Of a stretch of DNA of 64,000 bases, positions 2,955 to 54,796 are shown one piece after another. Source of the DNA: Promethearchaeota archaeon. GTDB lineage: Archaea > Asgardarchaeota > Lokiarchaeia > Sigyniarchaeales > SOKP01. Each line of letters opens with the position of its first letter. Positions within the stretch are counted from its first letter, which is position 1. The notes beneath the pieces were generated by a model that saw only the letters and a list, made by a program, of their open reading frames with translations, made no database searches and was not told the DNA's origin. Made by a program: the position numbers and the translations under genes. The stretch lies in assembly GCA_019058425.1 (NCBI GenBank), contig JAHPYZ010000002.1, forward strand, positions 27,880 through 91,879. Reading direction: 5' to 3'.

Positions 2955-3878
2955 ATGGGGAAGCTTATGCTAAAAGAACGATTGAAATTAATAAGAATTA
3001 TATATTTGATTTCTATAATTACTTTTTTCGGGTCTTCATTCATCCCGTATCTAGTACATTGGTATACTGGACAACCATATTATCAATTTTTTATGGTTGT
3101 CTTTTATTTTATTGTAAAGTTAATAATATCATTAGTGTTTATGATTTCTTTCTTAGTAACCTATAGAACAATAAGATTAGCTAATTCAATCGCGGGAATT
3201 GGTATTATAGTAATGGGTTTTTTCTTTTTTGCGGATATTGCAACCTTTTTATCTCCTGGTGATGAGTACAATCCAAACGAATCTTGGTTGGGTCTTGGTT
3301 TTTATATGGGAATTATTTCATATGGTGTAATTATTTGGATTAACCTACTGTTATCTAAATATGAAAAAGCAAGAATCAAATCTTTAATTGCAGCGGGTAC
3401 TCAAATAAAATACGTAGAGGTACCTATAAAACAAAGTGTTGAAGCTAAAAGTATTAAAACAGAAAATACTGAAGTTAAAAGGAGTTATATTGGATTTTTT
3501 AGTTATTCCATGAGAGACAGTCAACTTTTTAATATAAAAAAAATCGCGGAATCTCTACAATCTTACAAAGAGATTGATGAAATTTTATGGTGTGAAGAGG
3601 ATACAAGGGATAATTTTATCAAATACATGGATGAAAATATAGGAAAATGTGATGTAATGATCTTATTTTGCTCTCCAAACGCTTTAGAGTCTGGGTTTGT
3701 TGAAGATGAATGGATGGCTGCTCATGCCATGAAAAAGCCGATCATCCCTGTCTTTTTAAATATAGAACATGTTCCCCCACTTCTGAGAGCAAGAATAGGG
3801 GTGGAATTTGATGTTTTTAATTTTAAAAAGAACATTAAAGAAATTTATAATACTATAGAGAAAAAATTGTCTTCTTAA
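2955..3878 (+). CDS. Multi-pass membrane protein with C-terminal TIR-like domain
   Basis: 307 aa with about 4 hydrophobic helices in residues 10-135. The C-terminal 130 aa reads YIGFFSYSMRDSQLFNIKKIAESLQ...CDVMILFCSPNALESGFVEDEWMAAHAMKKPIIPVFL, matching the TIR layout (F-SYS..D strand A; ilf.S.na..S.wv..E block). Assignment rests on motif recognition only. Confidence 0.5.
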   Translation: MGKLMLKERLKLIRIIYLISIITFFGSSFIPYLVHWYTGQPYYQFFMVVFYFIVKLIISLVFMISFLVTYRTIRLANSIAGIGIIVMGFFFFADIATFLSPGDEYNPNESWLGLGFYMGIISYGVIIWINLLLSKYEKARIKSLIAAGTQIKYVEVPIKQSVEAKSIKTENTEVKRSYIGFFSYSMRDSQLFNIKKIAESLQSYKEIDEILWCEEDTRDNFIKYMDENIGKCDVMILFCSPNALESGFVEDEWMAAHAMKKPIIPVFLNIEHVPPLLRARIGVEFDVFNFKKNIKEIYNTIEKKLSS

Positions 3879-5017
3879 AACAAGACAAAACCGCAAGAAG
3901 GACAATTCTTTCTGGCACCCATTATAATTTTACTACAATTAGGACAAATATTTACGTGTGATTTCTTTTTAGTTTCCTTTGATTGGGGTTTTACTTCTTT
4001 TTCTTCAACTTTCGCTCGAATTGCAGCGGCCATAGGATCCTGTGCCTGAATAACTTTGGGCTTGACTTTAGCTTCTAATTCATGTAAATATTCAATAATA
4101 TTCTTTTTCTTAACTTTGTTTAATTCAGCAATAGTGGGTATTTTACCTGCTTTTACATTATTTACATAATTTTTCTCAAGTTTTAAGATATTAAAACAAT
4201 TATGACATCGAAATATATGAGGGATCCCAATATTAGACGTTTCAGACCATTGAGCCCAACATACCTTATGTGCAATAGTCTCACAGGAAGGACATTTAAC
4301 AATATTTTCATTATCTTTTTTAAAACATATAGAACATGTTACCATTTCTTCAACATTTTCAGGCTCATCAGCTAAATTTATATAAAAAGGTTGATTGTCT
4401 GGCAAAATCATCCGTAATCTTTGCTTAACAAATGAAGGATCGGAGACATATTTTTTCTCAGATAAAGTAGTCAGGATGGTATCAAGTTCTCGAATACTAT
4501 CAATTTCATAGAACCCACCATTACTTAATTTTGTTAATTTCATCAATTTTGGACTTATTTCTGAATTTGGTGGTCCTACTCGTATAATATCAATAAAAAA
4601 GGGCATGTCTTTAACAACTTTTACAAGCTCTTCTATTGGTGGGAGGTATTCGGAAGGGATATCATATGCTCCTTCATCAATCAAAATTAATAATCGGAAT
4701 ATTTTTTCAGATATTTTCTTATATACTTCAATTATAAAAGTTATGGCTATAAATATTCCACCAGCGATATTAGCATTAGTAATCTCCCCACTCATAGATT
4801 TTAAAGTTTTGAGTATATGTTCTTGATCAAAAGTAAAATGCTCTAAATAATTCGGACCATCATGTTGAAAGACTATAAGGTTAAATCTGTCAGATGGATC
4901 TGTAATTTGTTTGTTTTTCATAAAGTCTGCAATTGAACTAAAAACTTGACGCATTTTGGTAATTTCTGGAGTAAAGCCATAAAAAATAAGGCAATCTTCA
5001 CTTTTCGTGGATTCCAT
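3875..5017 (-). CDS. vWA-like domain protein with C4HC3 cross-brace (RING/PHD-like) zinc finger and C-terminal zinc ribbon
   Basis: 380 aa. Residues 1-190 have a vWA-type alternating beta/alpha pattern (DRFNLIVF..., RLLILIDEGAY, FFIDIIRVG) but no DxSxS MIDAS. C228-x2-C-x10-C-x2-C-x4-H-x2-C-x17-C-x2-C274 maps to nt 4196-4336. The C-terminal CPNC-x12-CPSC maps to nt 3893-3946. Confidence 0.6.
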   Translation of the reverse strand: MESTKSEDCLIFYGFTPEITKMRQVFSSIADFMKNKQITDPSDRFNLIVFQHDGPNYLEHFTFDQEHILKTLKSMSGEITNANIAGGIFIAITFIIEVYKKISEKIFRLLILIDEGAYDIPSEYLPPIEELVKVVKDMPFFIDIIRVGPPNSEISPKLMKLTKLSNGGFYEIDSIRELDTILTTLSEKKYVSDPSFVKQRLRMILPDNQPFYINLADEPENVEEMVTCSICFKKDNENIVKCPSCETIAHKVCWAQWSETSNIGIPHIFRCHNCFNILKLEKNYVNNVKAGKIPTIAELNKVKKKNIIEYLHELEAKVKPKVIQAQDPMAAAIRAKVEEKEVKPQSKETKKKSHVNICPNCSKIIMGARKNCPSCGFVLF

Positions 5018-5243
5018 GTTCTTTGAAAGGTATTTGAGGGTAATTAAAATTGCGTTTTATTTAATATAAATTTCGTGTAAAGATTAATAAGTTTAAGGGT
5101 AATCTTAATCCATTTTAAGTTTTCATGTATCTTTCTAATGAAGGATGATTAGATATTAAAAATTTTGATTAAATGATTCTTAAAATTTAAATATAGTGTT
5201 GTTTTTCTAATAAAAAGCTTAAAAAATAAGAGTATTAGAAATT

Positions 5244-5783
5244 ATGCTTGAAGGAACAAATATAAACTTAAGAGTTATGGAACAAGAAGATATTCCCCTT
5301 TACCATGAATGGATTAATACACCTGAAATTGTAGGTAAATACAATGCACATACATTTAGACAAATCTCAAAAGATTTATTAACTAAAGCTTTTAGTAATC
5401 TTGCTGATAGTCTTCAAATTTTCATAATTGAGAAAAAAGATAAAACTAGAATTGGTCTAATATTATTTTTTTTAGTAAAGGGAGGACCTGTTGAATTATT
5501 GGAAATTGGGTATTTAATAATTCCATCTGAACGGCAGAAGGGGTTCTGTACCGAAGCAGTCACCATTTTTGTGGATTATTTATTTTTAATAAAAAATATT
5601 TCACGTATTCAAGCTACTGCAGATGTTAGAAATATTGGATCTCATAAAGTTCTTGAAAATACAGGATTCACAAAAGAAGGTATTATACGAGATATGATAT
5701 TTAACCAAGGGAATTGGAGAGATTTCGCTCTTCATAGCATCCTTAGAAATGAATGGAAAGAACCAGTTCTTCTGAAAATTTAA
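5244..5783 (+). CDS. GNAT family N-acetyltransferase (RimJ/RimL-like)
   Basis: 179 aa. N-terminal LRVMEQEDIPLYHEWINTPE and core QKGFCTEAV...ATADVRNIGSHKVLENTGFTKEG resemble RimJ/RimL-type GNATs. Confidence 0.75.
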   Translation: MLEGTNINLRVMEQEDIPLYHEWINTPEIVGKYNAHTFRQISKDLLTKAFSNLADSLQIFIIEKKDKTRIGLILFFLVKGGPVELLEIGYLIIPSERQKGFCTEAVTIFVDYLFLIKNISRIQATADVRNIGSHKVLENTGFTKEGIIRDMIFNQGNWRDFALHSILRNEWKEPVLLKI

Positions 5784-5820
5784 ACTTTAAATGATTAGAA
5801 TCTGTAATTATTTTTTTCTA

Positions 5821-6903
5821 TTACTTCTTCTTTTTCTTCTTTTTCTTTTTCTTTTTTGAACCTTTTGATTCAACTCTTTTTGCATCTATCATAGCTCGTA
5901 TATCAGCAGCAAATGGATCTTCGGCGTGAACAACTTGAGGTTTACTTTGAGTTTCAATTTCTCGTAAATAATCAGTAACATCTTTCTTTTTCATCTTATT
6001 TAATTCAGCAATAGTAGGAATTCTACCAGTCTGAACGTCCATAATATAATTCTTATCTAATTTTAAAATATTAAAACAGTTATGGCACCTATATACATGT
6101 GGAATTCCAATATTGGATGTTTCAGCCCATTGCGCCCAACATACTTCATGAACGTCTGTATGACATGAGGGACACTTCACAATACCCTCATCACCTTGTT
6201 GAAAACAAATTGAGCAAGTTGCTATGCTAGTTACTCTTTCAGGCTCATCAGCTAGATTTATGTAAAACGGTTGATTTTCCTTAGAAATAAGAGGAGTTTC
6301 CTGCTTACTAAATGCGGGTTTTATTATTTTCTTCTTATAAGAAAGCTCCATTAACATGGGATTTAGTTCACTAATATCACTAATCTCATGATAATCACCC
6401 TTACTCAGGTTCACTAATTGAGTTAGATTATTACGTGCTTCATATTCAGGATGACCTATATGAATAACATCGATGAAAAATGGCATATCTTTAACTTTTT
6501 TAATTAACTCTTCTAATGCTGGAAGATAATGGGTTGGAATTGGATAAGCTCCATCATCTACTATGATTAATAAGCGAAAAATCTTCTCTGATATCCTTTT
6601 ATATACTTCTATAACAAAAGTAGTTGCTACAAATACACCCCCTGCAATATTCGCAGTTGAAATCTCATTCTCCACAGATTTTAGCATTGATAATATATTA
6701 TTTGTATCAAAAGTAAAGTGATCTAAATAATTTGGTCCATCTGGTAAAAATAAAATTAAATTAAACCTATCAGAGGGATCTTTACTTTGCTTCTTTTCCA
6801 TATACTCTGAAATTGAATTGTATATGCTTTTGATTTTAGTTAAATCTGGTGTTAAGCCATAGAAAATTAATGTATCCTCAGATTTAGTTATTTTTAGTTC
6901 CAT
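5821..6903 (-). CDS. vWA-like + C4HC3 cross-brace zinc-finger protein, paralog of 3875-5017, with a 12-Lys C-terminal tail
   Basis: 360 aa, colinear with the 380-aa paralog and with identical Cys/His spacing (CSIC-x10-CPSC-x4-H-x2-C-x17-CHNC). It lacks the terminal zinc ribbon and ends in SKGSKKKKKKKKKKKK. Confidence 0.6.
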   Translation of the reverse strand: MELKITKSEDTLIFYGLTPDLTKIKSIYNSISEYMEKKQSKDPSDRFNLILFLPDGPNYLDHFTFDTNNILSMLKSVENEISTANIAGGVFVATTFVIEVYKRISEKIFRLLIIVDDGAYPIPTHYLPALEELIKKVKDMPFFIDVIHIGHPEYEARNNLTQLVNLSKGDYHEISDISELNPMLMELSYKKKIIKPAFSKQETPLISKENQPFYINLADEPERVTSIATCSICFQQGDEGIVKCPSCHTDVHEVCWAQWAETSNIGIPHVYRCHNCFNILKLDKNYIMDVQTGRIPTIAELNKMKKKDVTDYLREIETQSKPQVVHAEDPFAADIRAMIDAKRVESKGSKKKKKKKKKKK

Positions 6904-7244
6904 TATTTAAACCATATAGATTTGATTAATCCTTATCTAATATAATTTTCGTGGGAGGATTAATAAGTTTAGGTATAAACTAACCTTTATTTAGATTTTA
7001 TTAGATATTGTGGATAATACTTCAAATAGCAAATTTTTGAATTTATATTATAAAATTATAGCATAGTGCTTTTTACTAGGTGAACTTTTACATTCTTACA
7101 CGAAATTTTTTATAAAAAAATACTTTCTACAATTTAAGTTAAGTTAAAATATCGAAGGATATTATTAAACGTTTATACATCTACAAATATTTTACGCTAA
7201 TGTAACAAATCACTGCTTAATCTATTTGAATATGAGGGAAAAAA

Positions 7245-7502
7245 ATGCAGATTTATCGATTAAAAATAAATAAGAACATATGTATAGGCTGTAATGACTG
7301 TGTAGTTAGTTGTCCACTCAATTTCCAGCAACTAAAGGACAAAGGTTATTTAACGCAAGAAAATGCTGTGGTATTAGTCAAAAATGGGATGGCTTATGAC
7401 ATTTATGTTGAAGGTAGAGATGTGAACTGTGATGGATGTGGTGTTTGCTTAAAATATTGTCCTGTAAATGCAATTGAATTACAATTAATTAAAGTTAAAT
7501 GA
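7245..7502 (+). CDS. 2x[4Fe-4S] ferredoxin, FwdG-like
   Basis: 85 aa with two CxxCxxCxxxCP motifs (CIGCNDCVVSCP, CDGCGVCLKYCP). GAGGG Shine-Dalgarno-like sequence lies 8 nt upstream. It is the first gene of the fwd cluster. Confidence 0.6.
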   Translation: MQIYRLKINKNICIGCNDCVVSCPLNFQQLKDKGYLTQENAVVLVKNGMAYDIYVEGRDVNCDGCGVCLKYCPVNAIELQLIKVK

Positions 7503-7512
7503 GGTAATAAAA

Positions 7513-8232
7513 ATGTCATTTCCAAAAATATCAAGATCAATCAGTAAAGATATTGAGCATGTAAAAGTACAATTCCTTACTGAAAGTTTAGAGCTAATCT
7601 TAGACAGAACTAAATGTGTAGGCTGTGGCACTTGCGCACGAGTCTGTCCAAAGGAGGCAATCTCGCGTGGACCGGTAGCTGCAGCTCGTCGGTTTCCTAA
7701 TATGGAAGATATAATTCCAGAAATATATGATCCTAAGCTATGCGTATTTTGTGGCACATGTGTAGTTATGTGCCCATTTAGTGCTTTAACGCTTAAAAAA
7801 GACGGAGAGTTTATTGAACTAAATGATATTCAAATTGTCAAGGAAAATGTAGTTCCAAAACTTGAGTTTGAAGCAAAAAAAATTAAAGATAATGCGGGAA
7901 TTGAAAGGATCGCGAAAATTTATGTTGATGGTGAGGTTGATATCGTTGACCCAGAATGTGCGGGTGGTTGCGAAGCTTGCGCTGATGTATGCCCTAGTGG
8001 TGCTATTACTGTTCCGGAAAAATCTGATAAGGGTTGGGAAACAGTACCTAATGTTGTAGTAGACCCAAAAAAATGTATTTTCTGTGGTTCTTGTGATAAT
8101 GCTTGTCCTACGGGGGCTGTTAAACTGAAAATTACCGATGTAAAATCTTCAGGAGATTTTAGTGAACTCTTTTGGGAACCCCTTTTAAAGAGAATAAAAA
8201 CATTAAGGTGGAGCGAACAGAAGGAGGAATAA
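7513..8232 (+). CDS. Polyferredoxin (four [4Fe-4S] motifs), FwdF-like
   Basis: 239 aa with CVGCGTCARVCP, CVFCGTCVVMCP, CAGGCEACADVCP and CIFCGSCDNACP. It lies between the small ferredoxin and fwdD. Confidence 0.6.
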   Translation: MSFPKISRSISKDIEHVKVQFLTESLELILDRTKCVGCGTCARVCPKEAISRGPVAAARRFPNMEDIIPEIYDPKLCVFCGTCVVMCPFSALTLKKDGEFIELNDIQIVKENVVPKLEFEAKKIKDNAGIERIAKIYVDGEVDIVDPECAGGCEACADVCPSGAITVPEKSDKGWETVPNVVVDPKKCIFCGSCDNACPTGAVKLKITDVKSSGDFSELFWEPLLKRIKTLRWSEQKEE

Positions 8233-8236
8233 TCAA

Positions 8237-8632
8237 ATGAGTATGAATAATTTAATTTTGATAACTTGCCGAACAATAAATCAAGGTGTAGCGCTTGAAG
8301 GAGGTAAAAACACTAAAGAAAATGTTCGTGCAGCGGGAATCTGTGCTTTTGACAGCGATGATTTTAAGAAATTAGATTGCCTTGTTGGGACACCAGTCAA
8401 GGTTATCACTGATTTTGGTGAAGTTATAGTATATTCTACGATTTCCGAAGAAGGGCCACATCCAGGAATAATTTTTATCCCAATGGGTCCTTGGGCAAAT
8501 CAAGTTGTCAATCCTGATTCACAATCATGTGGTACTCCCACTTATAAAGGAATGAAAGCACAAGTAGAAGTAATTTCTAGTGGAAAAGTTTTGGATGCTG
8601 TAGAATTAATTAATTTATTAAAGGAGGCTTAA
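8237..8632 (+). CDS. fwdD: Formylmethanofuran dehydrogenase subunit D
   Basis: 131 aa. LITCRTINQGVALEGGK ... IFIPMGPWANQVVNPDSQSCGTPTYKGMKAQVE matches the FwdD/molybdopterin-dinucleotide-binding barrel pattern. AAGGAGG RBS lies upstream. Confidence 0.8.
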   Translation: MSMNNLILITCRTINQGVALEGGKNTKENVRAAGICAFDSDDFKKLDCLVGTPVKVITDFGEVIVYSTISEEGPHPGIIFIPMGPWANQVVNPDSQSCGTPTYKGMKAQVEVISSGKVLDAVELINLLKEA

Positions 8633-8635
8633 AAA

Positions 8636-9961
8636 ATGGTAGAAAAAATTAGAACGGTCACTGACGTGATCTGTCCTTTTTGTGGGACTCTTTGTGATGA
8701 TCTTGAAATAGATGTTGATATAAATGAGGAAAAAGTAGTTGAAGTTCGTAATGGATGCCAAATAGGCACGAAGAAATATTTCTCTTCCAACCCAAGTGAA
8801 CATCGATATGACAAACCATTAATAAAAGATAATGGAGCGTATAAAGAAGTATCTTGGGATGAAGCTATTGATAAAGCTGCAGATATTCTCATAAATACGA
8901 AAAGACCATTATTATATGGATTTTCAAGTACTGAATGTGAAGCTCAGGGAAAAGGTGTGGAATTAGCTGAATTATTAGGAGGTATTTTAGATAACACTGC
9001 TTCAGTATGCCATGGCCCTTCATTACTAGCAATTCAAGACGTTGGTGCCCCTACCTCAACTTTAGGTGAATACAAAAATAGAGCAGACCTCGTTGTTTTT
9101 TGGGGAAGCAATCCTGTTCATGCGCATCCACGACATCTTGGAAGATATAGTGACTTTATCCGTGGTTATTTCAGAAAAGATGGTACAAATGATAGATTTA
9201 TTGTAGTTGTTGATCCTAGAAATACCCATACTGCTCAATTAGCTGATATGCATATTCAAGTTAATCCGAGTGAAGATTATGAATTATTAAATGCTATTAG
9301 AGCAACCTTGAGGGGTACTGAATTGGATGGTGATATGATTTCCGGTGTTCCAAAGAAAAAAATCATAGAATTAGTAAATATTCTAAAATCATGCAATTTT
9401 GGAGTTATCTTTTTCGGGATGGGATTAACTCAAACCTTTTCACATCATCGAAATATCGATGCTGCTATTTGTCTTGTAAGGGAATTAAATGATCATACTA
9501 AATTCTTATTAACGCCCATGCGTGGACATTATAATGTCGCTGGAGCAAATCAAGTTTTTGCATGGCAGACAGGATATTCATATTCTATCGATTTTTCGAA
9601 GAAGTATCCTCGTTATAATCCCGGGGAATACTCTTCTGTAGATGTTTTGTTAAAAGATGAAATTGATGCATCGTTAATTGTAGCCTCTGATCCTGCGAGT
9701 AATTTTCCAGCAGCAGCAGTGAAAAATTTGTTTAAGCATCCTATAATTACAATTGAACCTCATCATACTCCTACATCTGTGAATTCAGATATTATTTTAC
9801 CACCTGCAATTGCGGGGATAGAATGTGAAGGTACAGCATATCGAATGGATAGTGTTCCATTAAGATTAAGAAAAGTAAAAGAAGCTCCAGGTGATTGTTT
9901 AACAGATAGAGAGATATTAGAACGACTAGTTGAAGCTGTAAAACAAAAAAAGGGGGAATAG
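8636..9961 (+). CDS. fwdB: Formylmethanofuran dehydrogenase subunit B (Mo/W-bis-pterin subunit; Cys-type, not Sec)
   Basis: 441 aa. N-terminal CPFCGTLCDDLE cluster motif and ASVCHGPS active-site region with Cys. AAGGAGG RBS lies upstream. Confidence 0.85.
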   Translation: MVEKIRTVTDVICPFCGTLCDDLEIDVDINEEKVVEVRNGCQIGTKKYFSSNPSEHRYDKPLIKDNGAYKEVSWDEAIDKAADILINTKRPLLYGFSSTECEAQGKGVELAELLGGILDNTASVCHGPSLLAIQDVGAPTSTLGEYKNRADLVVFWGSNPVHAHPRHLGRYSDFIRGYFRKDGTNDRFIVVVDPRNTHTAQLADMHIQVNPSEDYELLNAIRATLRGTELDGDMISGVPKKKIIELVNILKSCNFGVIFFGMGLTQTFSHHRNIDAAICLVRELNDHTKFLLTPMRGHYNVAGANQVFAWQTGYSYSIDFSKKYPRYNPGEYSSVDVLLKDEIDASLIVASDPASNFPAAAVKNLFKHPIITIEPHHTPTSVNSDIILPPAIAGIECEGTAYRMDSVPLRLRKVKEAPGDCLTDREILERLVEAVKQKKGE

Positions 9962-9965
9962 AAAG

Positions 9966-10817
9966 ATGGCAGAAATCAAATTAAAATTAAAAACTAAACC
10001 TGAGTTTCCATTAGAAGCTGAAAATATATCACCAGATAAATTTGCTGGTAAATCAGCAGCAGATATCAAGAAACTAGTTGTTTATCATGGAAATGAAGAA
10101 AAATCACTTGGAGATTATTTTGATGTTTCGGGAGCGGGCGGAGAAATCAATGAAATGAAAATTATTATTGAAGGAGATCTTTCAAATGTTAAAAGAATTG
10201 GAGAGAAAATGACTAGTGGAGAAATTGTCATAAATGGTAATATCGGAATGCATGTAGGAAATACAATGACTGGAGGTAAAATTTTAGTAAATGGCAATGC
10301 TGACGATTGGGCGGGAGCTATGTTAAAGGGAGGCGAATTAGAGATTACTGGTGATGCTGGGCATTATGTAGGAGCAGCATATAGAGGATTTTGGAAAGGA
10401 ATGCAAAATGGCGTTATCAAGGTACATGGAAAAATAGGGAATGAAGCATTAACATGGGTAAATGGTTCAAAACCAGCTAAAAGATTTCCAACATTAATTT
10501 GTGGAAGTGCTGGTTCATTCTTAGGAATTCATGGTCATGGAGGAACAATTATAGTAGAAGGTGATTGTGATAGATGCATTGGAGCAGACCAGGTGCGAGG
10601 GACGATTGTTGTAAAAGGAAAAATTTCAAGAATTCTACCCTCATATAAGAAACTTGGTGAAATAAAAGAAATCGAATTGATGAGTGGAGAAAAAATTCAA
10701 GGAAAGTTTATGGAATATAGTGGAGACCATTCAGTTGAAAAAAATCATTCTAAAATCGATAAAAAAACGGGTGAAATTTCAAATAGCTCTAATGGGCGAT
10801 TATTTGTAGCTGTTTAA
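9966..10817 (+). CDS. fwdC: Formylmethanofuran dehydrogenase subunit C
   Basis: 283 aa with repeated G-rich beta-helix turns (INGNIGMHVGNTMTGGKILVNGNADDWAGAMLKGGELEITGDAGHYVGAAY), as in FwdC/GltB C-terminal domains. Confidence 0.8.
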   Translation: MAEIKLKLKTKPEFPLEAENISPDKFAGKSAADIKKLVVYHGNEEKSLGDYFDVSGAGGEINEMKIIIEGDLSNVKRIGEKMTSGEIVINGNIGMHVGNTMTGGKILVNGNADDWAGAMLKGGELEITGDAGHYVGAAYRGFWKGMQNGVIKVHGKIGNEALTWVNGSKPAKRFPTLICGSAGSFLGIHGHGGTIIVEGDCDRCIGADQVRGTIVVKGKISRILPSYKKLGEIKEIELMSGEKIQGKFMEYSGDHSVEKNHSKIDKKTGEISNSSNGRLFVAV

Positions 10818-10863
10818 ATCTCACATAATATAATTATAATAAATAACAAAAAAGGTTAAAGAT

Positions 10864-11496
10864 ATGCGGACCAAATTAGGAATAATTTTGCTAATTATTG
10901 GTGGAATATTAATGATAATTAGTTCTGCCATTGGGAGTATTGGAATTTATGAGATTCTTTATGGTTTAGTAGCTACTCAAATTCCCGCAAATTTCTCGTG
11001 GATAATACCGATATTAAATGTATTGATTACAATTATGAGATATATCGCGGATTTTGGGGGAGGAGCTGTAATAGTAGGTGCGATTTTTATAGCGTTGGGT
11101 ATTGTTAGATTTGGAAAATGGCTTGTTGGTATTGGTCTTACTTTCGGTACTCTTGCTTTAATTATCTGGGTAGTTTCACAAATTGCTAATAATACTAATT
11201 TAATTACAGATCCCCAAATCTTGAGTTATTTAGCTACTTTAAAAGGATTCTTTACATATAATACAGGTCTGCAATTTGGGGGTGTTGCAACCGCGATTAT
11301 TGGACGAAACTTCGTCAAGAAACCTAAAAAAGCTGAAGAAGAAATCGAAGAAGAAGAAGATATTGATTTCGAGGAAGAAATTGAATCATCAACACCATTG
11401 CCTTTTCAAAACATCAATTGTCCAAATTGTGGAACATCAATACCATTTAATGCTGAATTCTGTAGTGAATGCGGACACACTATTGAAAAGATATAA
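10864..11496 (+). CDS. Membrane protein with acidic linker and C-terminal zinc ribbon
   Basis: 210 aa with about 4 TM helices, an EEEIEEEEDIDFEEEIE linker, then CPNCG-x11-CSECG. Confidence 0.5.
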   Translation: MRTKLGIILLIIGGILMIISSAIGSIGIYEILYGLVATQIPANFSWIIPILNVLITIMRYIADFGGGAVIVGAIFIALGIVRFGKWLVGIGLTFGTLALIIWVVSQIANNTNLITDPQILSYLATLKGFFTYNTGLQFGGVATAIIGRNFVKKPKKAEEEIEEEEDIDFEEEIESSTPLPFQNINCPNCGTSIPFNAEFCSECGHTIEKI

Positions 11497-11613
11497 TAAT
11501 TTCTTAATTTGAAATAATATTATTTATTGAAAATCTACAATAAATAATATTATTACCATAGGCTAATATTTTAGACCAAATATTTAAATATCTAAGGATA
11601 TCTTGTAGATACT

Positions 11614-12552
11614 ATGAATGCGAATTCTTTTAAGATTAAACCTTATGATAATTCACTAGGGGTTTCTATTCTAGTAGATTTATATAATAAAATGAAAAAA
11701 TATTTAAATCCTGAATCAACAGTTTTAATAACTGAAGAGGTAATTCATACATTTTTAGGTAAAGAAACCGTTCTTTCACGAGATTTCATAATATTTGAAA
11801 CTAACCAAAACAATATTGTTGCACTTGCGGGTATATCCCGTATGCCATTTTTTAAGGATGCATGGTTAGTTATTTATGCTATCTTACCCGAATATTTTGA
11901 ATCAGAACTACCTGGAGTATTAATTGATGCCGTTTTGAATCTTGGAAAGAAATTAAATGCCCCAGGTCTCATATTTCAAACATTTGGAGTTCTATCAGCA
12001 CCTTTAGAGGAGAAATTAGAAAGTATTGGTATCAATCCTGCATTTTATAACTGGTCTATGCATCTGGATAATTTTAAATTATTTTCAAAACCTGATATTC
12101 CACAAGATATAATAATTCGGGATCTCAAGAAGATAGAAGATTATACCAGTTTTATTACTATAATAAACGAGGCTTTTAAAGATTCATTTAAATTTCAACC
12201 ATTCACAACAGCGACATGGAAAATGATGGATGATATGCTAAAAAAGACTTTTAGTGTTGAATATTGCATTGTTTATGAAAATAATAAACTTGTGGGGGGG
12301 TGTATTATTCATTTCAATCTGGAAAAAGATCAAATTGGTTTAATTTCAACTTTATGTGTTCTACCAAACTATCAACATCGCAAAATTGGGACCGGTTTAT
12401 TGGCATTTGGAATTGAAACACTTCATAAAAGAGGGTGTAAAAAATTTGAACTATCTGTTGAAACTAAAAATGAAAGAGCCTTAGGACTCTATAAAAAGTT
12501 TGGTTTTAAAGTAAAGAAAAATATGACACAAAAAACGTATCAAATTATATAA
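11614..12552 (+). CDS. GNAT acetyltransferase (two-domain, MshD-like layout)
   Basis: 312 aa. The C-terminal half carries the acetyl-CoA motif LCVLPNYQHRKIGTGLLAFG...NERALGLYKKFGFKV. Confidence 0.6.
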   Translation: MNANSFKIKPYDNSLGVSILVDLYNKMKKYLNPESTVLITEEVIHTFLGKETVLSRDFIIFETNQNNIVALAGISRMPFFKDAWLVIYAILPEYFESELPGVLIDAVLNLGKKLNAPGLIFQTFGVLSAPLEEKLESIGINPAFYNWSMHLDNFKLFSKPDIPQDIIIRDLKKIEDYTSFITIINEAFKDSFKFQPFTTATWKMMDDMLKKTFSVEYCIVYENNKLVGGCIIHFNLEKDQIGLISTLCVLPNYQHRKIGTGLLAFGIETLHKRGCKKFELSVETKNERALGLYKKFGFKVKKNMTQKTYQII

Positions 12553-12687
12553 GATCTTGTTTGAATTTTAAATGTCTTCTATTTATTTTTTTAAATTTAA
12601 TCTTTAATTACTTCAATTTATTTAAATTAAATAATATATATTATTCAATCTAATAAAAATCAGATCTACATATTAGAAGGTTGAAGC

Positions 12688-13503
12688 TTGTTTAAGAGAA
12701 AAGTAAAAATTTCAAAAATAACGAAAGACAAGAAGGTAGAAATAGAAGATATAATCCTATATGAAACTCCTATTGATTTATACGTGAATTCTAAGCCTTT
12801 AGTTAATATCATTTGCCTTGCTAATGATTTAAAAGAATTAACTGTTGGTTTTTTATTTTCTATAGGAATTATAGACTCGATTAAGGATATTAAAGATATC
12901 GATGTGAATGAATTAGAAAATTCTGTTTATGTAAAATTAAAAAAAGAGATCAATTTTGATATCGAAGCACTCGATGTTAATCCTATAAGTCGCGTGGTTG
13001 ATACGACATGTGGTATATCCTCTCCATGGCGAGAAGTTATCAAAAAATCTTTAGATAAAGCTAATATAAAAGAAGAACTTAAAGCGAAAGATAATATTAC
13101 CATTGAAGCTACAACGATATTATCTGCCATAAAAAAAATGCAAACTTCAACTCCACTTTATCGTGAAACAGGAGGTTGTCATGGAGCTGCTATATTTAAC
13201 AATGAGGGAAATTTACAGACTGTGAAGGAAGATATTGGTAGACACAACGCAATTGACAAAATCATTGGAGATCTGTTATTGAAAGAAATTAGTTTTGAAA
13301 ATGTTTTCTTAACATCAACTGGTAGGTTAACGGGCGATTCAGTGTTAAAAGCAATAAGAGCAAAGATCCCTATTGTTGCTTCTCTTTCTGCAGCAATTGA
13401 ATCTGGGATTCGATTAGCTTTCGCTTACGGGATAACTCTAATTGGTTTTGCCCGTGGTTCTAGAATGAATATCTATACCCATCCTGAAAGGATAATTGTA
13501 TAA
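12688..13503 (+). CDS. fdhD: FdhD sulfurtransferase (Mo/W-bisPGD cofactor sulfuration accessory protein)
   Basis: 271 aa with a TTG start. TGGCHGAA ... DIGRHNAIDKIIG ... TSTGRLTGDSVLKA blocks are characteristic of FdhD. Confidence 0.85.
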   Translation: MFKRKVKISKITKDKKVEIEDIILYETPIDLYVNSKPLVNIICLANDLKELTVGFLFSIGIIDSIKDIKDIDVNELENSVYVKLKKEINFDIEALDVNPISRVVDTTCGISSPWREVIKKSLDKANIKEELKAKDNITIEATTILSAIKKMQTSTPLYRETGGCHGAAIFNNEGNLQTVKEDIGRHNAIDKIIGDLLLKEISFENVFLTSTGRLTGDSVLKAIRAKIPIVASLSAAIESGIRLAFAYGITLIGFARGSRMNIYTHPERIIV

Positions 13504-26273: not shown

Positions 26274-27443
26274 TTAATCAGTGGAAATATATGAAATGAC
26301 TTCAGAAATTATATTATCTGGCATATTTTCTAGAAAACCCTGAGAAGATTTAGAATTTCCACCTCCTTTTCCACCATACTTTTGAATTAAAATCTGCATT
26401 AATTTATTAGAATCAATAGTTTCACTGAGTGAGAGTAATCTTAATTTAACTCCTTCAAATTTAACAAGAATTAATGAATTTAAGGGAAAATTCTCCAAAG
26501 ACTTATTCAATAATTTTATATCTACGTTGAAATCAATATAAAAGAGTGGTATATTCCCGATAATTTTAATTGGGGTTTTAGATATTAATTCTAAAAACTT
26601 AATAGATAAGACTTTTTGTTGGTCCTGGATAGTATCAAGAAGTTCCAAACGCTTTTTTATGAGGTTAACAGTATTTTCTAAAGGGGAATTTAGTCTATTG
26701 GCAAGATATATTATATCTACATTGTCGTTTGAACTCATTAGTAATGATTTATCTCCAATAAAATATCTAATCTTATTTCCTTTTTTGAAATCATAAATGT
26801 AAATCTTTCCTATTTCCGTGGTATTCTTAATATGAGTTCCTCCACAACATACTAAATCTAAATCTTCTATTTCCATTAATCTTATGTTAGATTCATCTGG
26901 GATTGCGCTTCTTATTTTCTCAGAACATTTCCTTGCATCTTTATTTGACATTACATTTGATTTGACCTTTAAATTATTCGAAGAGCAAATTTTATTTACT
27001 TCAATTAAGACTTCTTTTAATTGATTATATTCTATTTTTTGAGATATACTGAGAAATACTTCTTCAAAAGCAAGATTAGCTCGAACGGTTTTAATATTGA
27101 ACTTATTTTTAAAAACTGCTGAAAAAATATGTTGAGAAGTGTGAGCTTTCATAATTCCATAGCGATAATCCCAATCAATTTGTCCCTTAACGTTGTCTCC
27201 TATATTAACTTGATTTTTAAAATCAGAGGTAATATGATGCAATATCTCTTCTCCATCTTTAATCACTTTTTCAATTTTAAGTTTGGTATTTTCTATAACT
27301 AATTCTCCTCGATCACTTGCTTGGTTTCCACTTTCGGGATAAAATAAAGTTTTATCAAGAACAATCCCCTCCTCTCTAATCTCTGTTATTTTAGCAGTGA
27401 ACTTAATATCATAAGCATTTTCCCAATATAATTTTTCAGTCAT
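26274..27443 (-). CDS. alaX: AlaX-L type alanyl-tRNA editing protein (editing domain + DHHA1-like C-terminus)
   Basis: HTSQH...CCGGTH zinc/editing motifs and a C-terminal GGKGGGNSKSSQG. The track ORF starts at TTG 27467, but ATG 27443 (MTEKLYWEN) has AAGGTG 7 nt upstream. Confidence 0.8.
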   Translation of the reverse strand: MTEKLYWENAYDIKFTAKITEIREEGIVLDKTLFYPESGNQASDRGELVIENTKLKIEKVIKDGEEILHHITSDFKNQVNIGDNVKGQIDWDYRYGIMKAHTSQHIFSAVFKNKFNIKTVRANLAFEEVFLSISQKIEYNQLKEVLIEVNKICSSNNLKVKSNVMSNKDARKCSEKIRSAIPDESNIRLMEIEDLDLVCCGGTHIKNTTEIGKIYIYDFKKGNKIRYFIGDKSLLMSSNDNVDIIYLANRLNSPLENTVNLIKKRLELLDTIQDQQKVLSIKFLELISKTPIKIIGNIPLFYIDFNVDIKLLNKSLENFPLNSLILVKFEGVKLRLLSLSETIDSNKLMQILIQKYGGKGGGNSKSSQGFLENMPDNIISEVISYISTD

Positions 27444-27559
27444 AAAATACACCTTTTTTGGCAACACTCTCTTTTTAGATAAAATTAATATGAGATTATA
27501 TCAATTAATTATCAAACTTATTTTAAATTGTATAAACTTTCATTATTTCTATTCCTTAT

Positions 27560-28976: not shown

Positions 28977-29420
28977 ATGAAAATCAAATATATGTACTGC
29001 AAAATATGTAAAAAAGAGGTAGAAGAAGCACGCAGAAAACCACTAGAAACAATGCAGAAAGTAGTTTGGGTTATTGTCATTGTAGCTACAATAGGAATCG
29101 CGGCTATTGCTTATGCGATATATTTGTCTAATAGACCAAAACACTATTGCCCAACTTGCTATACAAAATTAGACTTTTCAGACAAACCTTTTGAAAAACC
29201 AAAAAAGAAAATTGAAGAAATGACAGCTAAAGAAAAAATACTAGCAAAAACTGGTGTGGAAGAAGAAGCGGAAGAAGAGGTTCTAGTTGAAGATAAACCT
29301 GCTGATAAGAAAAAAGAGAAAAAAGAGAAGAAGAAAATTATTTGTTCCTATTGCGGAGAAGAATTAGAGGAAGAGGTCGCAATTTGTCCCTTCTGTCAAG
29401 CAACACTGAAATCTAAATAA
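28977..29420 (+). CDS. Single-TM protein with split zinc-ribbon Cys pairs
   Basis: 147 aa with CKIC ... TM ... CPTC and a C-terminal CSYCG-x11-CPFC, plus a K/E-rich linker. Confidence 0.45.
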   Translation: MKIKYMYCKICKKEVEEARRKPLETMQKVVWVIVIVATIGIAAIAYAIYLSNRPKHYCPTCYTKLDFSDKPFEKPKKKIEEMTAKEKILAKTGVEEEAEEEVLVEDKPADKKKEKKEKKKIICSYCGEELEEEVAICPFCQATLKSK

Positions 29421-39805: not shown

Positions 39806-40654
39806 ATGTCAGTACCTTCAAGTTTAAAAGTAGGTCCTAATACAACCCTTATTTTAGCAAAAAAGAGATATCTTATTTTCTATATTTTCCTTGTCTGGAT
39901 TAGTCTGTTTTCAATTCAATTTGAGTTTTGGGTGCTCTGGATACTCTATGAACCAAAATTTATTCACTTTTTATTGTTCCTTCCTCTAGTTATTTTTCTA
40001 ATGTATCTTTCTTCAATATTAGTATCATTAATCTTCGCTAAAATAATTCTTATTATTGTGAATCTTATTCATAAACCACGTGAAGGAGTATTTTTAAGGC
40101 ATCAATCAGATAAAGATTATAGATATTGGAGTCTAAGAAGTACTATCAAGAAATGGCCAATATGGTTATCTCATAAATTTCCTTTTCCTTTTATGGATAA
40201 TCTATGTTTCAAGATGTTCGGAGTACGAACTAAACTTTCCAGTTCATTATTTGAAGGATGGGTAGATACTGAATTTATCGAATTTGGAAAAAATGTTGTG
40301 GTAGGACAAGGAGCTATTGTTCAATCTGCAATTATAGTTGGAAATCTGTTTATTATAAGAAAAACTATCATTGAGGATAATGTTGTAATTGGTGCTCAAT
40401 CTGTTGTTATGCCTGGCACACATATGAAAAGAAATTCAATTCTAGGAGGGCATTCCCTAACCACAGTAGGTCAAGAACTTGAAGAATGTTTCATCTATTT
40501 AGGAGCTCCGGCAAAAAAATTCAAAAAAAATGTATTCCTTGAAGATGGATTGGAAGAAATCATACAAGAGCAAGGAGAAAAGCAAATTAAATCAAAAGTT
40601 AGTGTTGAAGAATTATACACGGTACGCAAAGATAAAGAAACTAAGGTCGAATGA
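39806..40654 (+). CDS. TM-hairpin + hexapeptide beta-helix module protein, module type 3 of 3
   Basis: 282 aa. TM hairpin, then IHKPREGVFLRHQSDKDYRYWSLRS..., then IEFGKNVVVGQGAIVQSAIIVGNLFIIRKTIIEDNVVIGAQSVVMPGTHM. It starts 3 nt after module 2. Ortholog-like paralog at 52936-53886. Confidence 0.6.
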   Translation: MSVPSSLKVGPNTTLILAKKRYLIFYIFLVWISLFSIQFEFWVLWILYEPKFIHFLLFLPLVIFLMYLSSILVSLIFAKIILIIVNLIHKPREGVFLRHQSDKDYRYWSLRSTIKKWPIWLSHKFPFPFMDNLCFKMFGVRTKLSSSLFEGWVDTEFIEFGKNVVVGQGAIVQSAIIVGNLFIIRKTIIEDNVVIGAQSVVMPGTHMKRNSILGGHSLTTVGQELEECFIYLGAPAKKFKKNVFLEDGLEEIIQEQGEKQIKSKVSVEELYTVRKDKETKVE

Positions 40655-41515: not shown

Positions 41516-42421
41516 ATGAAAATTGGATATCCTTGTATAAATTTAACTTTAAATTGCAGAAGTAGTAGAACTTTTCGCTTGGAAAATTATTCAGAAGAAA
41601 GACTTATAGGAACTATTGATAATAACTTAAAATGTTTATCTAAAATCTTAAAATTTAACACTGAAAATAATCTTCTGTTTTTTCGAATTACTTCGGATTT
41701 GATACCATTTGCTTCACATCCAATCATGAAATTCAATTGGCAAAATTATTTCAAATCTAAATTCAAAGAAATTGGGTCATATATAAAAAAGAAATCAATG
41801 CGGATCAGCATGCATCCTGGGCAATATACTGTACTTAACTCAAAAAATAAAAATGTGGTTCAAAATAGCATAAAAGAATTAAAATACCATGTAGAAGTTT
41901 TAGAGGTATTAGGTTTAAATTCAGAAGCGAAAGTGATAACTCATGTGGGAGGTGTTTATGGAGATAAGAAAAGCAGTATTAAACGCTTTCTCCAGATGTA
42001 TAAAACTCTCAGTGATAACATAAAGATGCATTTCATAATTGAAAATGATGATAAAAGTTATAATATAAAGGATTGCTTAAAAATCAATGACAACATAGGA
42101 ATTCCAATTGTTTTCGATTCATATCATCATTTTTGTTATAACCAAGGGGAATCTATTGAAGAGGCTATCCAACTTATCTCGAAAACTTGGAAAAAAAAAG
42201 ATGGATTACCTATTCTACATTACAGTTCTGAACATCCAATTAAGGGAAAATATAGACATGCTGATGAAATTGATATAAGTCATTTTAACAATTTTTTAAA
42301 AAAGTCATGTAATTATGATTTTGATCTAATGTTAGAAGTTAAAAATAAAGAAAAAAGTGCTATTCTTGCCAGAGAGCAATTAATTAATGATGTAAGATTT
42401 AAAACAAATTCAGAACTATGA
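41516..42421 (+). CDS. uvdE: UV-damage endonuclease (UvdE/Uve1 family)
   Basis: 301 aa. MKIGYPCINLTL...RTFRL...NL..L..IL.FN.ENNLLFFRITSDLIPFASHP and later HVGG..GDK / FDSYHH blocks are typical of UvdE TIM-barrel endonucleases. Confidence 0.75.
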   Translation: MKIGYPCINLTLNCRSSRTFRLENYSEERLIGTIDNNLKCLSKILKFNTENNLLFFRITSDLIPFASHPIMKFNWQNYFKSKFKEIGSYIKKKSMRISMHPGQYTVLNSKNKNVVQNSIKELKYHVEVLEVLGLNSEAKVITHVGGVYGDKKSSIKRFLQMYKTLSDNIKMHFIIENDDKSYNIKDCLKINDNIGIPIVFDSYHHFCYNQGESIEEAIQLISKTWKKKDGLPILHYSSEHPIKGKYRHADEIDISHFNNFLKKSCNYDFDLMLEVKNKEKSAILAREQLINDVRFKTNSEL

Positions 42422-44276: not shown

Positions 44277-45116
44277 ATGAATTCTATTGAAAAAACAGAA
44301 GAAGGTTGGTTAATTCCAAAATCTCCTATTACTTTCGATTACCTAAAAAAATTCAATCGGAATATGGGTATTTTACATTTGATACAAGGGTTACTAATGG
44401 TGCTTTTTGGGTTTTTACCTCAACTAGCTTTTTCCAGAGACATTTACACTTTTTACCTCAAGTTTGAACTCGTTGGTCCAGATTTCGTTATTTCACCAAA
44501 TCCTACAGTGTTGTTTGTCTTTAGTGCTTTAGGGGCATTTGTTGGCTCTTTTCTATTAATGTCTGCCATCGCTCATTTGTTAATAGCTTATCCGCTAAAT
44601 AAAAGCTATGTTAGAAATTTAAAAAGAGGAATAAACAAAGTACGTTGGTTTGAGTACGCCCTATCAAGTTCCGTAATGATTTTCTTAATAGCTATCTTTT
44701 TTGGAGTCTGGGATTTTTGGTCATTGTTTATGATTTTTATTTCTAATGCCTTGATGAATATGTTTGGCTTAATGATGGAATCATATAATGTATATACAAG
44801 AGAAAGAAATGAGAAGGTTAAATGGGGACCATATTATTTAGGTGTAATCGCAGGAGCCGTTCCTTGGATTGTTATTACTGCATATTTTATAAGTACTGAA
44901 ACCATTGGAGGAGAAGTACCACTATTTGTCTATTTGATTTATGGAATCGAACTATTTTTCTTTAACACATTCGCAATCAATATGATACTGCAATATAAAG
45001 GAGTGGGAAAATGGAAGGATTATCTATACGGTGAAAGAGTATATCAACTACTAAGTCTTGTATCTAAAACCTTTTTAGCATGGCTCGTATTTGCTGGAGT
45101 ATTTAGTCCTACATAA
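44277..45116 (+). CDS. Heliorhodopsin
   Basis: 279 aa with 7 TM helices. Strong colinear similarity, from my memory of heliorhodopsin 48C12: KKFNRNMGILHLIQ, AIAHLLI, KVRWFEYALSSSVMIFLIA, GAVPWIV, FFFNTFAINMILQYKGVGKWKDYLYGERVYQLLSLVSKTFLAWLVFAG. The Schiff-base Lys candidate is K264 (nt 45066-45068) and the counterion-position Glu is E126. Confidence 0.85.
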   Translation: MNSIEKTEEGWLIPKSPITFDYLKKFNRNMGILHLIQGLLMVLFGFLPQLAFSRDIYTFYLKFELVGPDFVISPNPTVLFVFSALGAFVGSFLLMSAIAHLLIAYPLNKSYVRNLKRGINKVRWFEYALSSSVMIFLIAIFFGVWDFWSLFMIFISNALMNMFGLMMESYNVYTRERNEKVKWGPYYLGVIAGAVPWIVITAYFISTETIGGEVPLFVYLIYGIELFFFNTFAINMILQYKGVGKWKDYLYGERVYQLLSLVSKTFLAWLVFAGVFSPT

Positions 45117-54088: not shown

Positions 54089-54796
54089 TTATTTTAATAT
54101 GAAGTACATTCTTCTATTGTTTTTACCTTTATTGACTGTTTTAGTTACCTCAATTTTGCCAATTTCTTTTAGATGATTGATATGTGTGCCTCCGTCTACT
54201 TGTTCATCGATATCTCCAATTCTAACAATTCTAAATTCTTTGATATTCTTAGGTAATCCTACAGCTAGGCGTGCTAATTCAGGTTTTCCTAAAACCTCAT
54301 CCCTAGTCATGTAATCGATAGTAGTTGGTAAGTCTTGCTCGATAATACTATTAGCTTCATCTACAAAATCTCTCAATTTTTCAGGAGAATAATCTAGCAT
54401 TGAGAAATCCATTCTTGTTTTATCCATTTCTATTTGATTCCCTGTAATTTTCGCATCAGCTCTCTTATAAAGTATATTACTAATGAGATGAGAAGCTGTA
54501 TGATATCGCATATAGGTATATCTACGTTCCCAATTGAGTTCACAATGAACCTTATCACCTTCTTTTAACCCTGACTTATCTACTTCATGACTAATATTCC
54601 CTGAAAACTTTCCAACATAAACCACCTTATACTCTTGATCATCCTTTATGATTGAGCCTTCATCCCAAGGTTGACCTCCTCCTTTAGGGTAGAAAGCAGT
54701 ATTATCTAATACCACATATTTATCATCTGTGACACTTACCACTTTCGCATTCCAGCTTTTAAGGTAAGAATCATCCATATAGAGTGCTCTAGCCAT
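54089..54796 (-). CDS. alaX: AlaX-M type alanyl-tRNA editing protein
   Basis: 235 aa with an N-terminal beta-barrel region, YHTASHL and VDGGTHINHL editing-site motifs. Confidence 0.8.
   Translation of the reverse strand: MARALYMDDSYLKSWNAKVVSVTDDKYVVLDNTAFYPKGGGQPWDEGSIIKDDQEYKVVYVGKFSGNISHEVDKSGLKEGDKVHCELNWERRYTYMRYHTASHLISNILYKRADAKITGNQIEMDKTRMDFSMLDYSPEKLRDFVDEANSIIEQDLPTTIDYMTRDEVLGKPELARLAVGLPKNIKEFRIVRIGDIDEQVDGGTHINHLKEIGKIEVTKTVNKGKNNRRMYFILK

Follow-up and report, generated by a model that had tools for sequence, protein, structure and literature searches.

A 64,000-nucleotide stretch of the Promethearchaeota archaeon contig JAHPYZ010000002.1 (hereafter the window; G+C content, ~29%) was found to carry two nearby genes, A (vRA) and B (vRB), whose products appear to combine an N-terminal von Willebrand factor type A (vWA) domain with an eight-ligand zinc finger of the C4HC3 type. 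Computational analysis established the domain identities of these proteins, the conservation of their zinc ligands, their taxonomic restriction, and their synteny. In the structural models, the N-terminal domain adopts a vWA fold whose metal ion-dependent adhesion site (MIDAS) is degenerate, and the zinc module is predicted to be a C4HC3 cross-brace finger that is intermediate between the PHD and RING types rather than two ribbons. The family lies in no curated family, the window proteins having failed the threshold tests, yet it is a clear relative of known kinds, and it appears to be restricted to Asgard archaea of the Loki and Hel lineages. The safest statement about its function is that it is a zinc-dependent, multi-domain protein-protein adaptor; our own reading, which is tentative, goes further and takes A and B to be members of a putative RING-type E3-like ligase or adaptor family.

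The original prediction, made from the letters of the window alone, had named two paralogous open reading frames (ORFs) around a GNAT acetyltransferase gene. Their coordinates were exact, and A and B were 61% identical and 79% similar over 343 amino acids (E = 7e-166). A whole-chain AlphaFold2 model of A, built from a 30-sequence alignment, had a mean predicted local distance difference test (pLDDT) value of 74, and within it residues 7 to 187 formed alternating beta and alpha elements with pLDDT values of ~80 to 90. When compared to the PDB with Foldseek, this region matched many vWA domains, including integrin I domains, with template modeling (TM) scores of 0.66 to 0.73 and root mean square deviations (rmsd) of 3.3 to 4.6 Å; the vWA domains of Rpn10, p34, and p44 gave TM scores of 0.71 to 0.73 and rmsd values of 3.3 to 4 Å. 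The best whole-model matches were Tfb4/p34 (6.6e-12) and p44/Ssl1 (9e-11), which ranked ahead of targets consisting of a vWA domain only. A diverse 60-sequence family profile (A2; mean column identity, 16%) was then compared to PDB sequences and matched Rpn10/PSMD4 (7e-12 over positions 7 to 172), MERIT40/BABAM1 (2e-8), the bacterial BatA-like vWA 4rck (1.5e-7), TFIIH p44 (5e-7), and Tfb4/p34 (4e-6), while extracellular vWA domains scored more weakly, from 5e-4 for the anthrax toxin receptor to 1e-2 for integrin I domains. A narrow profile (A1) gave no significant match to PDB sequences, and Rpn10 and p44 were reached by A2 only. Alignment by hhalign to a vertebrate p44 alignment gave a probability of 97.5% and an E value of 7e-12 over 166 columns, with family columns 12 to 190, the vWA domain only, being covered. 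The predicted vWA-like domain without a MIDAS is thus supported by the models and profiles.

Neither window protein reached the Pfam gathering thresholds for vWA domains. A scored 18.5 bits against VWA_2 (cut-off, 27) and 12.3 bits against VWA, and B had no match. Several MIDAS-bearing relatives that are joined to the window family at 1e-11 to 1e-17 did pass, reaching as much as 72 bits for VWA_2 and 59.6 bits for VWA, so that the vWA membership of A and B is transitive. The Ssl1 model (PF04056; cut-off, 27 bits) matched 8 of 60 relatives, some of them above the cut-off (30 to 33 bits), and did not match A or B at E values up to 1. At the MIDAS position A has G-F-T-P-E and B has G-L-T-P-D, with no DxSxS metal site in either; the remnants in A are G14-x-T16-x-E18, and only D114 of the canonical site is kept. 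The first MIDAS Asp was kept in 40 of the 60 relatives, and a full DxSRS-type motif was present in 13 of the relatives listed. The profiles place the domain in the VWA_2-type branch, of which the eukaryotic intracellular vWA domains are members too, but do not point to orthology with any of these. Since the BatA-like domain scored in the same range, the similarity to Rpn10 and MERIT40 may reflect membership in this branch rather than a specific link between Asgard archaea and eukaryotes.

The predicted eight-ligand C4HC3 motif was present exactly as described, in A as C228-x2-C231-x10-C242-x2-C245-x4-H250-x2-C253-x17-C271-x2-C274 and in B at the same positions plus 2. The string CWAQW, which had been said to follow the motif, was also present, but it starts at the sixth ligand, C253, and lies inside it. 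Seven of the eight ligand columns were invariant, and the eighth (C253) was Cys in 59 of 60 relatives that share a mean column identity of 16%; this conservation across diverse relatives, in a large family, argues that the motif did not arise by chance. A model of the finger (A residues 203 to 302; 20 sequences) had a pLDDT value of 93.7 and showed a beta-hairpin, an 11-residue helix starting at ligands 5 and 6, and two more short strands, which is the layout of a RING. Almost all of its Foldseek neighbors were E3 RINGs (Deltex1, RNF12, TRIM2, AO7, NSE1, SLX1, and PHF7), and NSE1 superposed on it with an rmsd of 2.0 Å over 57 columns (probability, 0.97). In comparisons of the finger profile to the PDB, matches to the RING-H2 finger of Arkadia (4.5e-4), NSE1 (1e-3), Doa10 (2e-3), and FANCL (3e-3) were found below those to PHD fingers. 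The model and the profiles thus favor the earlier call of a cross-brace RING/PHD finger instead of simple ribbons, and two independent ribbons are not what the finger model suggests. We describe the finger as a PHD/RING intermediate because its modeled structure is RING-like and its sequence signal leans toward PHD.

Several features of the finger bear on whether it could contact an E2. Two residues after the first ligand, 54 of the 60 relatives have I, L, or V, and four residues after the sixth ligand, on the central helix, 53 of them have W, Y, or F. A third E2-contact position, directly after the seventh ligand, was Pro in 30 of 60 relatives and is His in A and B. The first two positions are the equivalents of I30 and W58 of the archaeal srfp E3, in which I30, W58, and R69 are all required for activity (PMC5654768). 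The commonest Pfam match of the finger was Prok-RING_1 (PF14446), which was found in 34 of 60 relatives with a best E value of 1.9e-6 and which A and B approached with 23.2 and 21.2 bits, respectively, against a gathering threshold of 29.1. In addition, the MIDAS-bearing relative P0230 contains another finger at its C terminus, and this one scores above the zf-ANAPC11 threshold (31.5 bits; cut-off, 25).

The RING-like structure of the finger, the presence of the main E2-contact residues, and the existence of relatives with recognized RING-H2 fingers are the first basis for the E3-like reading. The second is that the nearest characterized relatives of the vWA domain act in ubiquitin-handling complexes or, in the case of Ssl1, have been reported to have ligase activity. 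Asgard genomes, including those of Loki lineages, encode ubiquitin, E1, and E2. From these observations we take A and B to be cytosolic, zinc-dependent adaptors and infer a possible ligase activity, the kind of partner involved, and dimerization, as follows. The MIDAS-less vWA domain would dock a partner or substrate protein. The C4HC3 finger would bind two zinc ions and offer a RING-like surface made up of the Ile after the first Cys and the central-helix Trp, to which an E2 charged with a ubiquitin-like conjugate, or some other protein, could be recruited. A second anchor would be provided by the tail, which is basic and disordered, together with the terminal ribbon, the latter being dispensed with in B, and the two paralogs may pair through the helices that flank the finger.

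A number of results weigh against an E3 function. The Foldseek matches of the finger were not significant, the best having an E value of 0.04; for so small a domain, the absence of E values under 1e-3 is to be expected. Cross-brace zinc ligation is suggested by the fold neighbors of the finger, since AlphaFold models no zinc. A and B scored below every Pfam RING and PHD threshold (PHD, 10.2 bits for B against a cut-off of 24; PHD_5, 10.1 bits for A). The finger profile ranked PHD fingers first among PDB sequences (1.3e-6 to 1e-4), and the spacing of the ligands (x2, n, x2, x4, x2, n, x2) is PHD-like. Many RING E3s require a linchpin Arg or Lys, which in srfp is R69, but in none of the 60 relatives is the residue after the last ligand R or K; F, Y, G, D, E, L, Q, and N occur there instead. 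A scan for ubiquitin, E1, E2, and JAMM domains was negative for the 53 window ORFs of at least 85 amino acids that it covered, a set that left out three ORFs of at least 100 amino acids near the 3' end, nested ORFs, and most ORFs of fewer than 100 amino acids; the original statement that the window holds no ubiquitin, E1, or E2 gene agrees with this. None of these domains lay beside the family in 11 Pfam-annotated loci (L001 to L007, L062, L064, L066, and L068) except for one ThiF-family gene, and in 54 further loci, whose neighbors were compared without a domain scan, the recurrent neighbors were metabolic genes. Taken together, the absence of a linchpin, the lean of the sequence toward PHD, and the fact that no ubiquitin system is linked to the family are real counter-evidence.

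The PHD-like signal raises the possibility that the finger is a reader tied to acetylation, binding a peptide, perhaps one with an N terminus or a lysine acetylated by the neighboring GNAT, and that the vWA domain couples this binding to a downstream complex. The PHD fingers that matched the finger profile best include the acyl-lysine readers DPF2, DPF3, and KAT6A (1e-6 to 1e-3), and the PHD-like spacing is accompanied by an aromatic residue two positions before ligand 7, as in PHD fingers (F269, conserved in 55 of 60 relatives). The similarity is generic, though, and the model has a RING-type central helix with a conserved Trp, which PHD fingers lack. As to the GNAT, its assignment as a RimJ/RimL-like enzyme on the opposite strand held: the protein matched Acetyltransf_3 (PF13302) at 6e-21, with 75.9 bits against a cut-off of 25.4, and its best NCBIfam match was the RimJ equivalog at 43 bits against a cut-off of 190, so the RimJ resemblance is weak. 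Of 54 related loci, ~18 have a homolog of this GNAT within the same syntenic block, and in a Helarchaeota contig (L007) the gene next to a distant family member encodes a different, unrelated GNAT. However, the position and orientation of the GNAT varied, being convergent with or divergent from A or kilobases away, and the whole block could be inherited synteny. Placement of the gene between the two paralogs is confined to the window, L008, and L010; the description of paralogs flanking a GNAT is correct for the window but reflects a local rearrangement seen in three genomes only. GNATs are also abundant, with a second one encoded at 11614-12552. An acetylation-linked reader is, in our view, very improbable.

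A second alternative, and the main rival of the E3-like reading, is that the family is a non-catalytic scaffold resembling TFIIH p44/p34. In it, the vWA domain of one copy would bind the finger of the other, giving an A-B heterodimer or, in genomes with a single copy, a homodimer; a helicase, another ATPase, or a similar enzyme would be held by the vWA face, and the finger would be a protein-protein interface only. We consider this rather unlikely, although it accounts for several results: Tfb4/p34 and p44/Ssl1 were the top whole-model Foldseek matches, Tfb4 and p44 were both significant in the sequence-profile search, some relatives lie above the Pfam Ssl1 threshold, and the RING linchpin is absent. 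Moreover, p34 and p44 are paralogs that each consist of a vWA domain and zinc fingers, and a tandem paralog pair is also present here. The duplication of A and B is recent, however, given their 61% identity and the restriction of B to the closest genomes, and therefore it is not the p34/p44 split. Whole-chain superpositions reached TM scores of just 0.37 to 0.47 with rmsd values of 16 to 20 Å, the hhalign match to p44 covered the vWA alone, the C4C4 RING of p44 was not among the top 60 PDB matches of the finger profile, the order of the zinc modules differs, and neither the window nor the annotated loci were seen to contain an XPD or XPB gene. A broader evolutionary proposal, which we hold to be quite improbable, is that the family is a surviving Asgard representative of the stock behind the eukaryotic vWA and zinc-finger adaptors (p44/p34, and the vWA domains of Rpn10 and MERIT40), already working as vWA-finger-interlocked dimers, as E3s with a PHD/RING-intermediate finger, or as both. 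If true, archaea would have an ancestor-like form both of the PHD and RING-variant fingers and of the p44/p34 module of TFIIH.

Downstream of the finger, conserved helices are followed by a disordered stretch rich in Lys and Arg, with pLDDT values below 50 for much of residues 304 to 352. The linker motif (E/D)DP(F/M)AxxhRA was conserved within the close clade. Its form DPFAADIRAM was considered as a ubiquitin-interacting motif (UIM) and rejected, since a manual alignment to the consensus needed a register-breaking gap; the UIM family was absent from the Pfam matches of A, B, and their relatives. The 25 residues before the ribbon contained a median of 8 Lys or Arg residues across the family, and the ribbon was found at the extreme C terminus of 169 of 223 full-length members. 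As had been predicted, A has a C-terminal CPNC...CPSC ribbon and B a tail of 12 Lys residues. A ends CPNC-x10-CPSC, and its ribbon gave sub-threshold Pfam matches to UPF0547 and DZR. B ends in the 12 Lys codons followed by TAA TAG, and a frameshift in this poly-A tract that might hide a ribbon was rejected because there are no Cys codons downstream in the window and no frame encodes a ribbon. No ribbon was found in any frame after the B-type poly-Lys tract of L008, L009, L010, and L014, whereas the B-type copies of L001, L011, and L040 keep a ribbon after it and others end at or just after it. Such a poly-Lys end, encoded by a long A-rich tract, recurs in the window (5824-5859), L008 to L010, L014, L015, L038, and L041, and the B-type copies of L038 and L041 have short, odd tails that resemble frameshifts. 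The A tract may be a hot spot for loss of the C-terminal ribbon. Some members of other subfamilies have a second finger, some an extra CxxC in loop 1, and some long coiled-coil extensions (up to ~1,100 amino acids).

Homologs of A were numerous. One database yielded 315 matches, the best 120 of which were full-length or nearly so and 60 to 88% identical, and a profile search of 1.84 billion cluster representatives gathered a family of 224 proteins at E values up to 1e-3. Named members among the ten clusters that were looked up came from Lokiarchaeia, Helarchaeota, or Promethearchaeota. A scan of one genome per GTDB species, which used the narrow profile A1 and thus reaches close orthologs only, gave 54 loci, all of them in Asgard metagenome-assembled genomes (MAGs) or in genomes labeled "uncultured archaeon." All named homologs of A were from Asgard MAGs, in keeping with the original description of an archaeal protein. 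Twelve of the loci (L008, L010, L016, L017, L029, L036, L038, L039, L046, L049, L050, and L061) are in MAGs with JBHL... accessions labeled Thor-, Hermod-, Hod-, or Odinarchaeota, and these carry the fwd, POR, and vWA-RING genes in the same order and with up to 87 to 95% protein identity to "Promethearchaeota" MAGs. These near-identical copies and their synteny make the Thor, Hod, Odin, and Hermod labels look unreliable, and only a Loki/Hel-type distribution is claimed here. No curated model in Pfam, NCBIfam, or PADLOC names A or B, and the close family has no precomputed Pfam domain; its members have so far been annotated only as "hypothetical" or "vWA domain-containing," and no description of the family was found in the open-access literature that was searched on Asgard vWA, RING, TFIIH, p44, Ssl1, or Rpn10. 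Scans of A, B, and the adjoining TIR protein with PADLOC and NCBIfam gave no match, so a role in a known defense system is not supported.

The positions of these genes and of their parts are given in Table 1. Across the 54 species-level loci, the typical gene order was ferredoxin-fwdFDBC (divergent), B where present, A, the GNAT where present (on the opposite strand), and PORab, which encodes 2-oxoacid:ferredoxin oxidoreductase (POR); in more distant orthologs (52 to 58% identity), the POR genes separate the fwd operon from the family gene. B-type genes are recent tandem duplicates and are present only in the closest genomes, and both the duplication and the placement of the GNAT are lineage specific. 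A homolog of the 85-amino-acid ferredoxin was found in 38 of 52 loci that carry a family gene, with the fwd-divergent arrangement conserved, and this linkage extends to orthologs that are ~50% identical.

Table 1. Positions of the vWA and zinc-finger genes, their domains, and adjoining features in the window
Feature	Position	Strand	Remarks
ORF A (vRA), 380 aa	3875-5017	minus	vWA, then C4HC3 finger, helical/disordered basic linker, and C-terminal zinc ribbon
vWA domain of A (modeled), residues ~7-187	4457-4999	minus	Degenerate MIDAS
C4HC3 cross-brace finger of A (predicted), C228 to C274	4196-4336	minus	Preceded by conserved FYxNLA helix (residues ~205-217)
K/R-rich linker of A, residues 281-352	3962-4177	minus	Helical, then disordered
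Four-Cys ribbon of A	3893-3946	minus	C358-x2-C361-x10-C372-x2-C375
ORF B (vRB), 360 aa	5821-6903	minus	No ribbon
vWA domain of B (modeled)	~6337-6879	minus	
C4HC3 finger of B	6076-6216	minus	
12-Lys tail of B	5824-5859	minus	
GNAT, Acetyltransf_3 family (RimJ/RimL-like), 179 aa	5244-5783	plus	Convergent with B, divergent from A
Intergenic region, 341 bp	6904-7244		Between B and the divergently transcribed ferredoxin-fwdFDBC operon
Membrane protein with C-terminal TIR domain	2955-3878	plus	3' end overlaps 3' end of A by 4 bp; Pfam TIR_2, 5.8e-13

This conserved neighborhood, in which the family gene lies between the fwd and POR operons, would fit a regulator or assembly factor for two ferredoxin-dependent enzymes, formylmethanofuran dehydrogenase (Fwd) and POR. 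The protein could be a maturation adaptor of the vWA type, or it could bind nucleic acid through its ribbon and basic tail and so regulate the divergent fwd operon. CoxE, NorD, CbbO, and ChlD are vWA proteins that take part in metallo-cofactor insertion with MoxR ATPases, and the basic tail ending in a ribbon would suit the second variant. No MoxR-type ATPase is adjacent, however; the MIDAS is degenerate although such adaptors normally keep theirs, and the vWA domain is nearer to Rpn10 and p44 than to the chelatase or CoxE types. Distant subfamilies lie in unrelated neighborhoods, and the Fwd and POR proteins are themselves 80 to 94% identical across genomes, so that the synteny may simply be inherited. 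A dedicated role in Fwd or POR assembly or regulation thus seems to us of very low probability, and the E3-like ligase or adaptor remains the reading that we favor.

Beyond the closest relatives, the neighborhoods of six distant subfamily members revealed no consistent partner. A 274-amino-acid ThiF/MoeB/UbaA-like E1-family gene (L062, 5017-5841, minus strand) is divergent from P0273, a MIDAS-bearing, two-finger member, and is the sole hint of a ubiquitin-like system near the family. Arf-, RagA-, or Ras-type GTPase genes adjoin distant members in three independent contigs, L005 (3200-4219 and 9365-10570), L062 (8523-9845), and L066 (526-1206), and in L005 a Gtr1/RagA-like GTPase gene is flanked by two family members; this adjacency could be due to chance, Asgard genomes being rich in GTPases. 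The TIR protein, a membrane protein with ~4 to 5 predicted helices as judged by eye, has a counterpart adjoining the family gene in none but the closest genomes (L001/L019 and L002), and its copy in L009 is ~4.5 kb away. A radical-SAM cassette of ~4 kb that is absent from the window was found ~1.2 to 5 kb downstream of the A ortholog, between A and the GNAT or POR genes, in 12 loci (L008, L009, L013 to L015, L018, L020, L022, L024, L030, L035, and L037). It consists of a radical-SAM-like gene (CxxxCxxC; ~380 to 398 amino acids), one to three tandem ORFs of ~90 to 100 amino acids, a gene for a 449-amino-acid protein, and one or two genes for 363-amino-acid proteins, and it looks like a peptide-modification cluster. 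In a thirteenth locus, L043, only the radical-SAM gene is present, upstream and on the opposite strand.

Elsewhere in the window, the operon at 7245-13503 (plus strand) encodes the ferredoxin, an FwdF-like polyferredoxin, FwdD, FwdB, an FwdC-like GXGXG protein, a 210-amino-acid protein with a C-terminal zinc ribbon, the second GNAT (312 amino acids), and FdhD, and POR genes are also carried. Other genes on the plus strand encode a heliorhodopsin (44277-45116; Pfam, 4.8e-86), a UvdE UV-damage endonuclease (41516-42421; 8.9e-66), a 345-amino-acid leucine-rich-repeat protein (55645-56682), and a 147-amino-acid protein (28977-29420) whose zinc-ribbon domain is LITAF-like (3.6e-6), a type more familiar in eukaryotes. 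The same strand encodes four proteins with hexapeptide repeats (left-handed beta-helix; 39806-40654, 48758-50587, 51086-52939, and 52936-53886), two of which are paralogs of ~610 amino acids with no other recognized domain. Two AlaX-like proteins, each with an alanyl-tRNA synthetase editing domain and tRNA_SAD, are encoded on the minus strand (26274-27467 and 54089-54796).

Asgard archaea are the closest known relatives of eukaryotes, and their eukaryote-like proteins are the main evidence for the origin of eukaryotic machineries. The family described here is useful in this regard: curated models are blind to it, its members have a PHD/RING-intermediate finger fused to a vWA domain from the branch of Rpn10, p44, and p34, and it apparently occurs in Loki/Hel-type Asgard archaea only. 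If its members are active E3s or p44/p34-like interlocking scaffolds, the archaeal ubiquitin or TFIIH-like repertoire would extend beyond the small RINGs of ubiquitin operons, and the proteins would also offer a tractable prokaryotic model of how vWA domains and cross-brace fingers cooperate. Should they be protein-interaction adaptors and nothing else, they would still form a well-defined family, now with domain assignments, that is relevant to the evolution of the eukaryotic vWA/zinc-finger adaptors and of the ubiquitin system.

Among known systems, the original prediction had pointed to TFIIH p44/Ssl1 and to Rpn10. The resemblance was upheld by Foldseek and profiles for the vWA domain, but the zinc modules of p44 differ in order and could not be aligned. 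Like the family, p44/Ssl1 (GTF2H2) and p34/Tfb4 (GTF2H3) have a cytosolic vWA domain followed by zinc-binding modules, and their vWA domains are homologous to that of the family by profile. The first six ligands of the p44 C4C4 RING are spaced x2, x11, x2, x4, x2, and the x2, x10, x2, x4, x2 of the family agrees with this. In the family, however, the C4HC3 finger comes first and the ribbon second, whereas in p44 a C4 finger precedes the C4C4 RING. Collinear homology of the zinc fingers to those of p44 was rejected, because hhalign aligns the vWA domain only. Neither A nor B had a Pfam match to Ssl1, Tfb4, or C1_4 (PF07975), and C1_4 was absent from the relatives as well; at the sequence level the family would best be regarded as related to p44/p34 through its vWA domain, with no evidence of orthology. 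Rpn10/PSMD4 and MERIT40/BABAM1, the top sequence-profile matches of the vWA domain, are intracellular vWA proteins of ubiquitin-handling complexes, and their structural similarity to the family is high (TM scores, 0.69 to 0.73). They lack a RING or PHD finger, and the family in turn has no detected UIM.

An archaeal counterpart is the srfp E3 of Caldiarchaeum subterraneum and of Asgard ubiquitin operons, which has a cross-brace finger of the kind predicted for the family and shares with it the conserved Ile and Trp (PMC5654768). Unlike srfp, the family has a C4HC3 rather than a RING-H2 finger, lacks the linchpin Arg or Lys, lies outside a ubiquitin-E1-E2 operon, and consists of much larger proteins that carry a vWA domain. 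Compared to the eukaryotic C4HC3 fingers (PHD, and those of NSE1, FANCL, SLX1, and Doa10/MARCH), the ligand pattern and spacing are identical to those of PHD, while the predicted central helix with its Trp is RING-like and the finger is fused to a vWA domain. Finally, the plant E3s RGLG and WAV3 combine a vWA/copine-type domain and a RING in one polypeptide. Pfam Copine was not among the families listed for A, B, or their relatives, and the plant vWA-RING ligases and the Asgard family are presumably the products of independent fusions.

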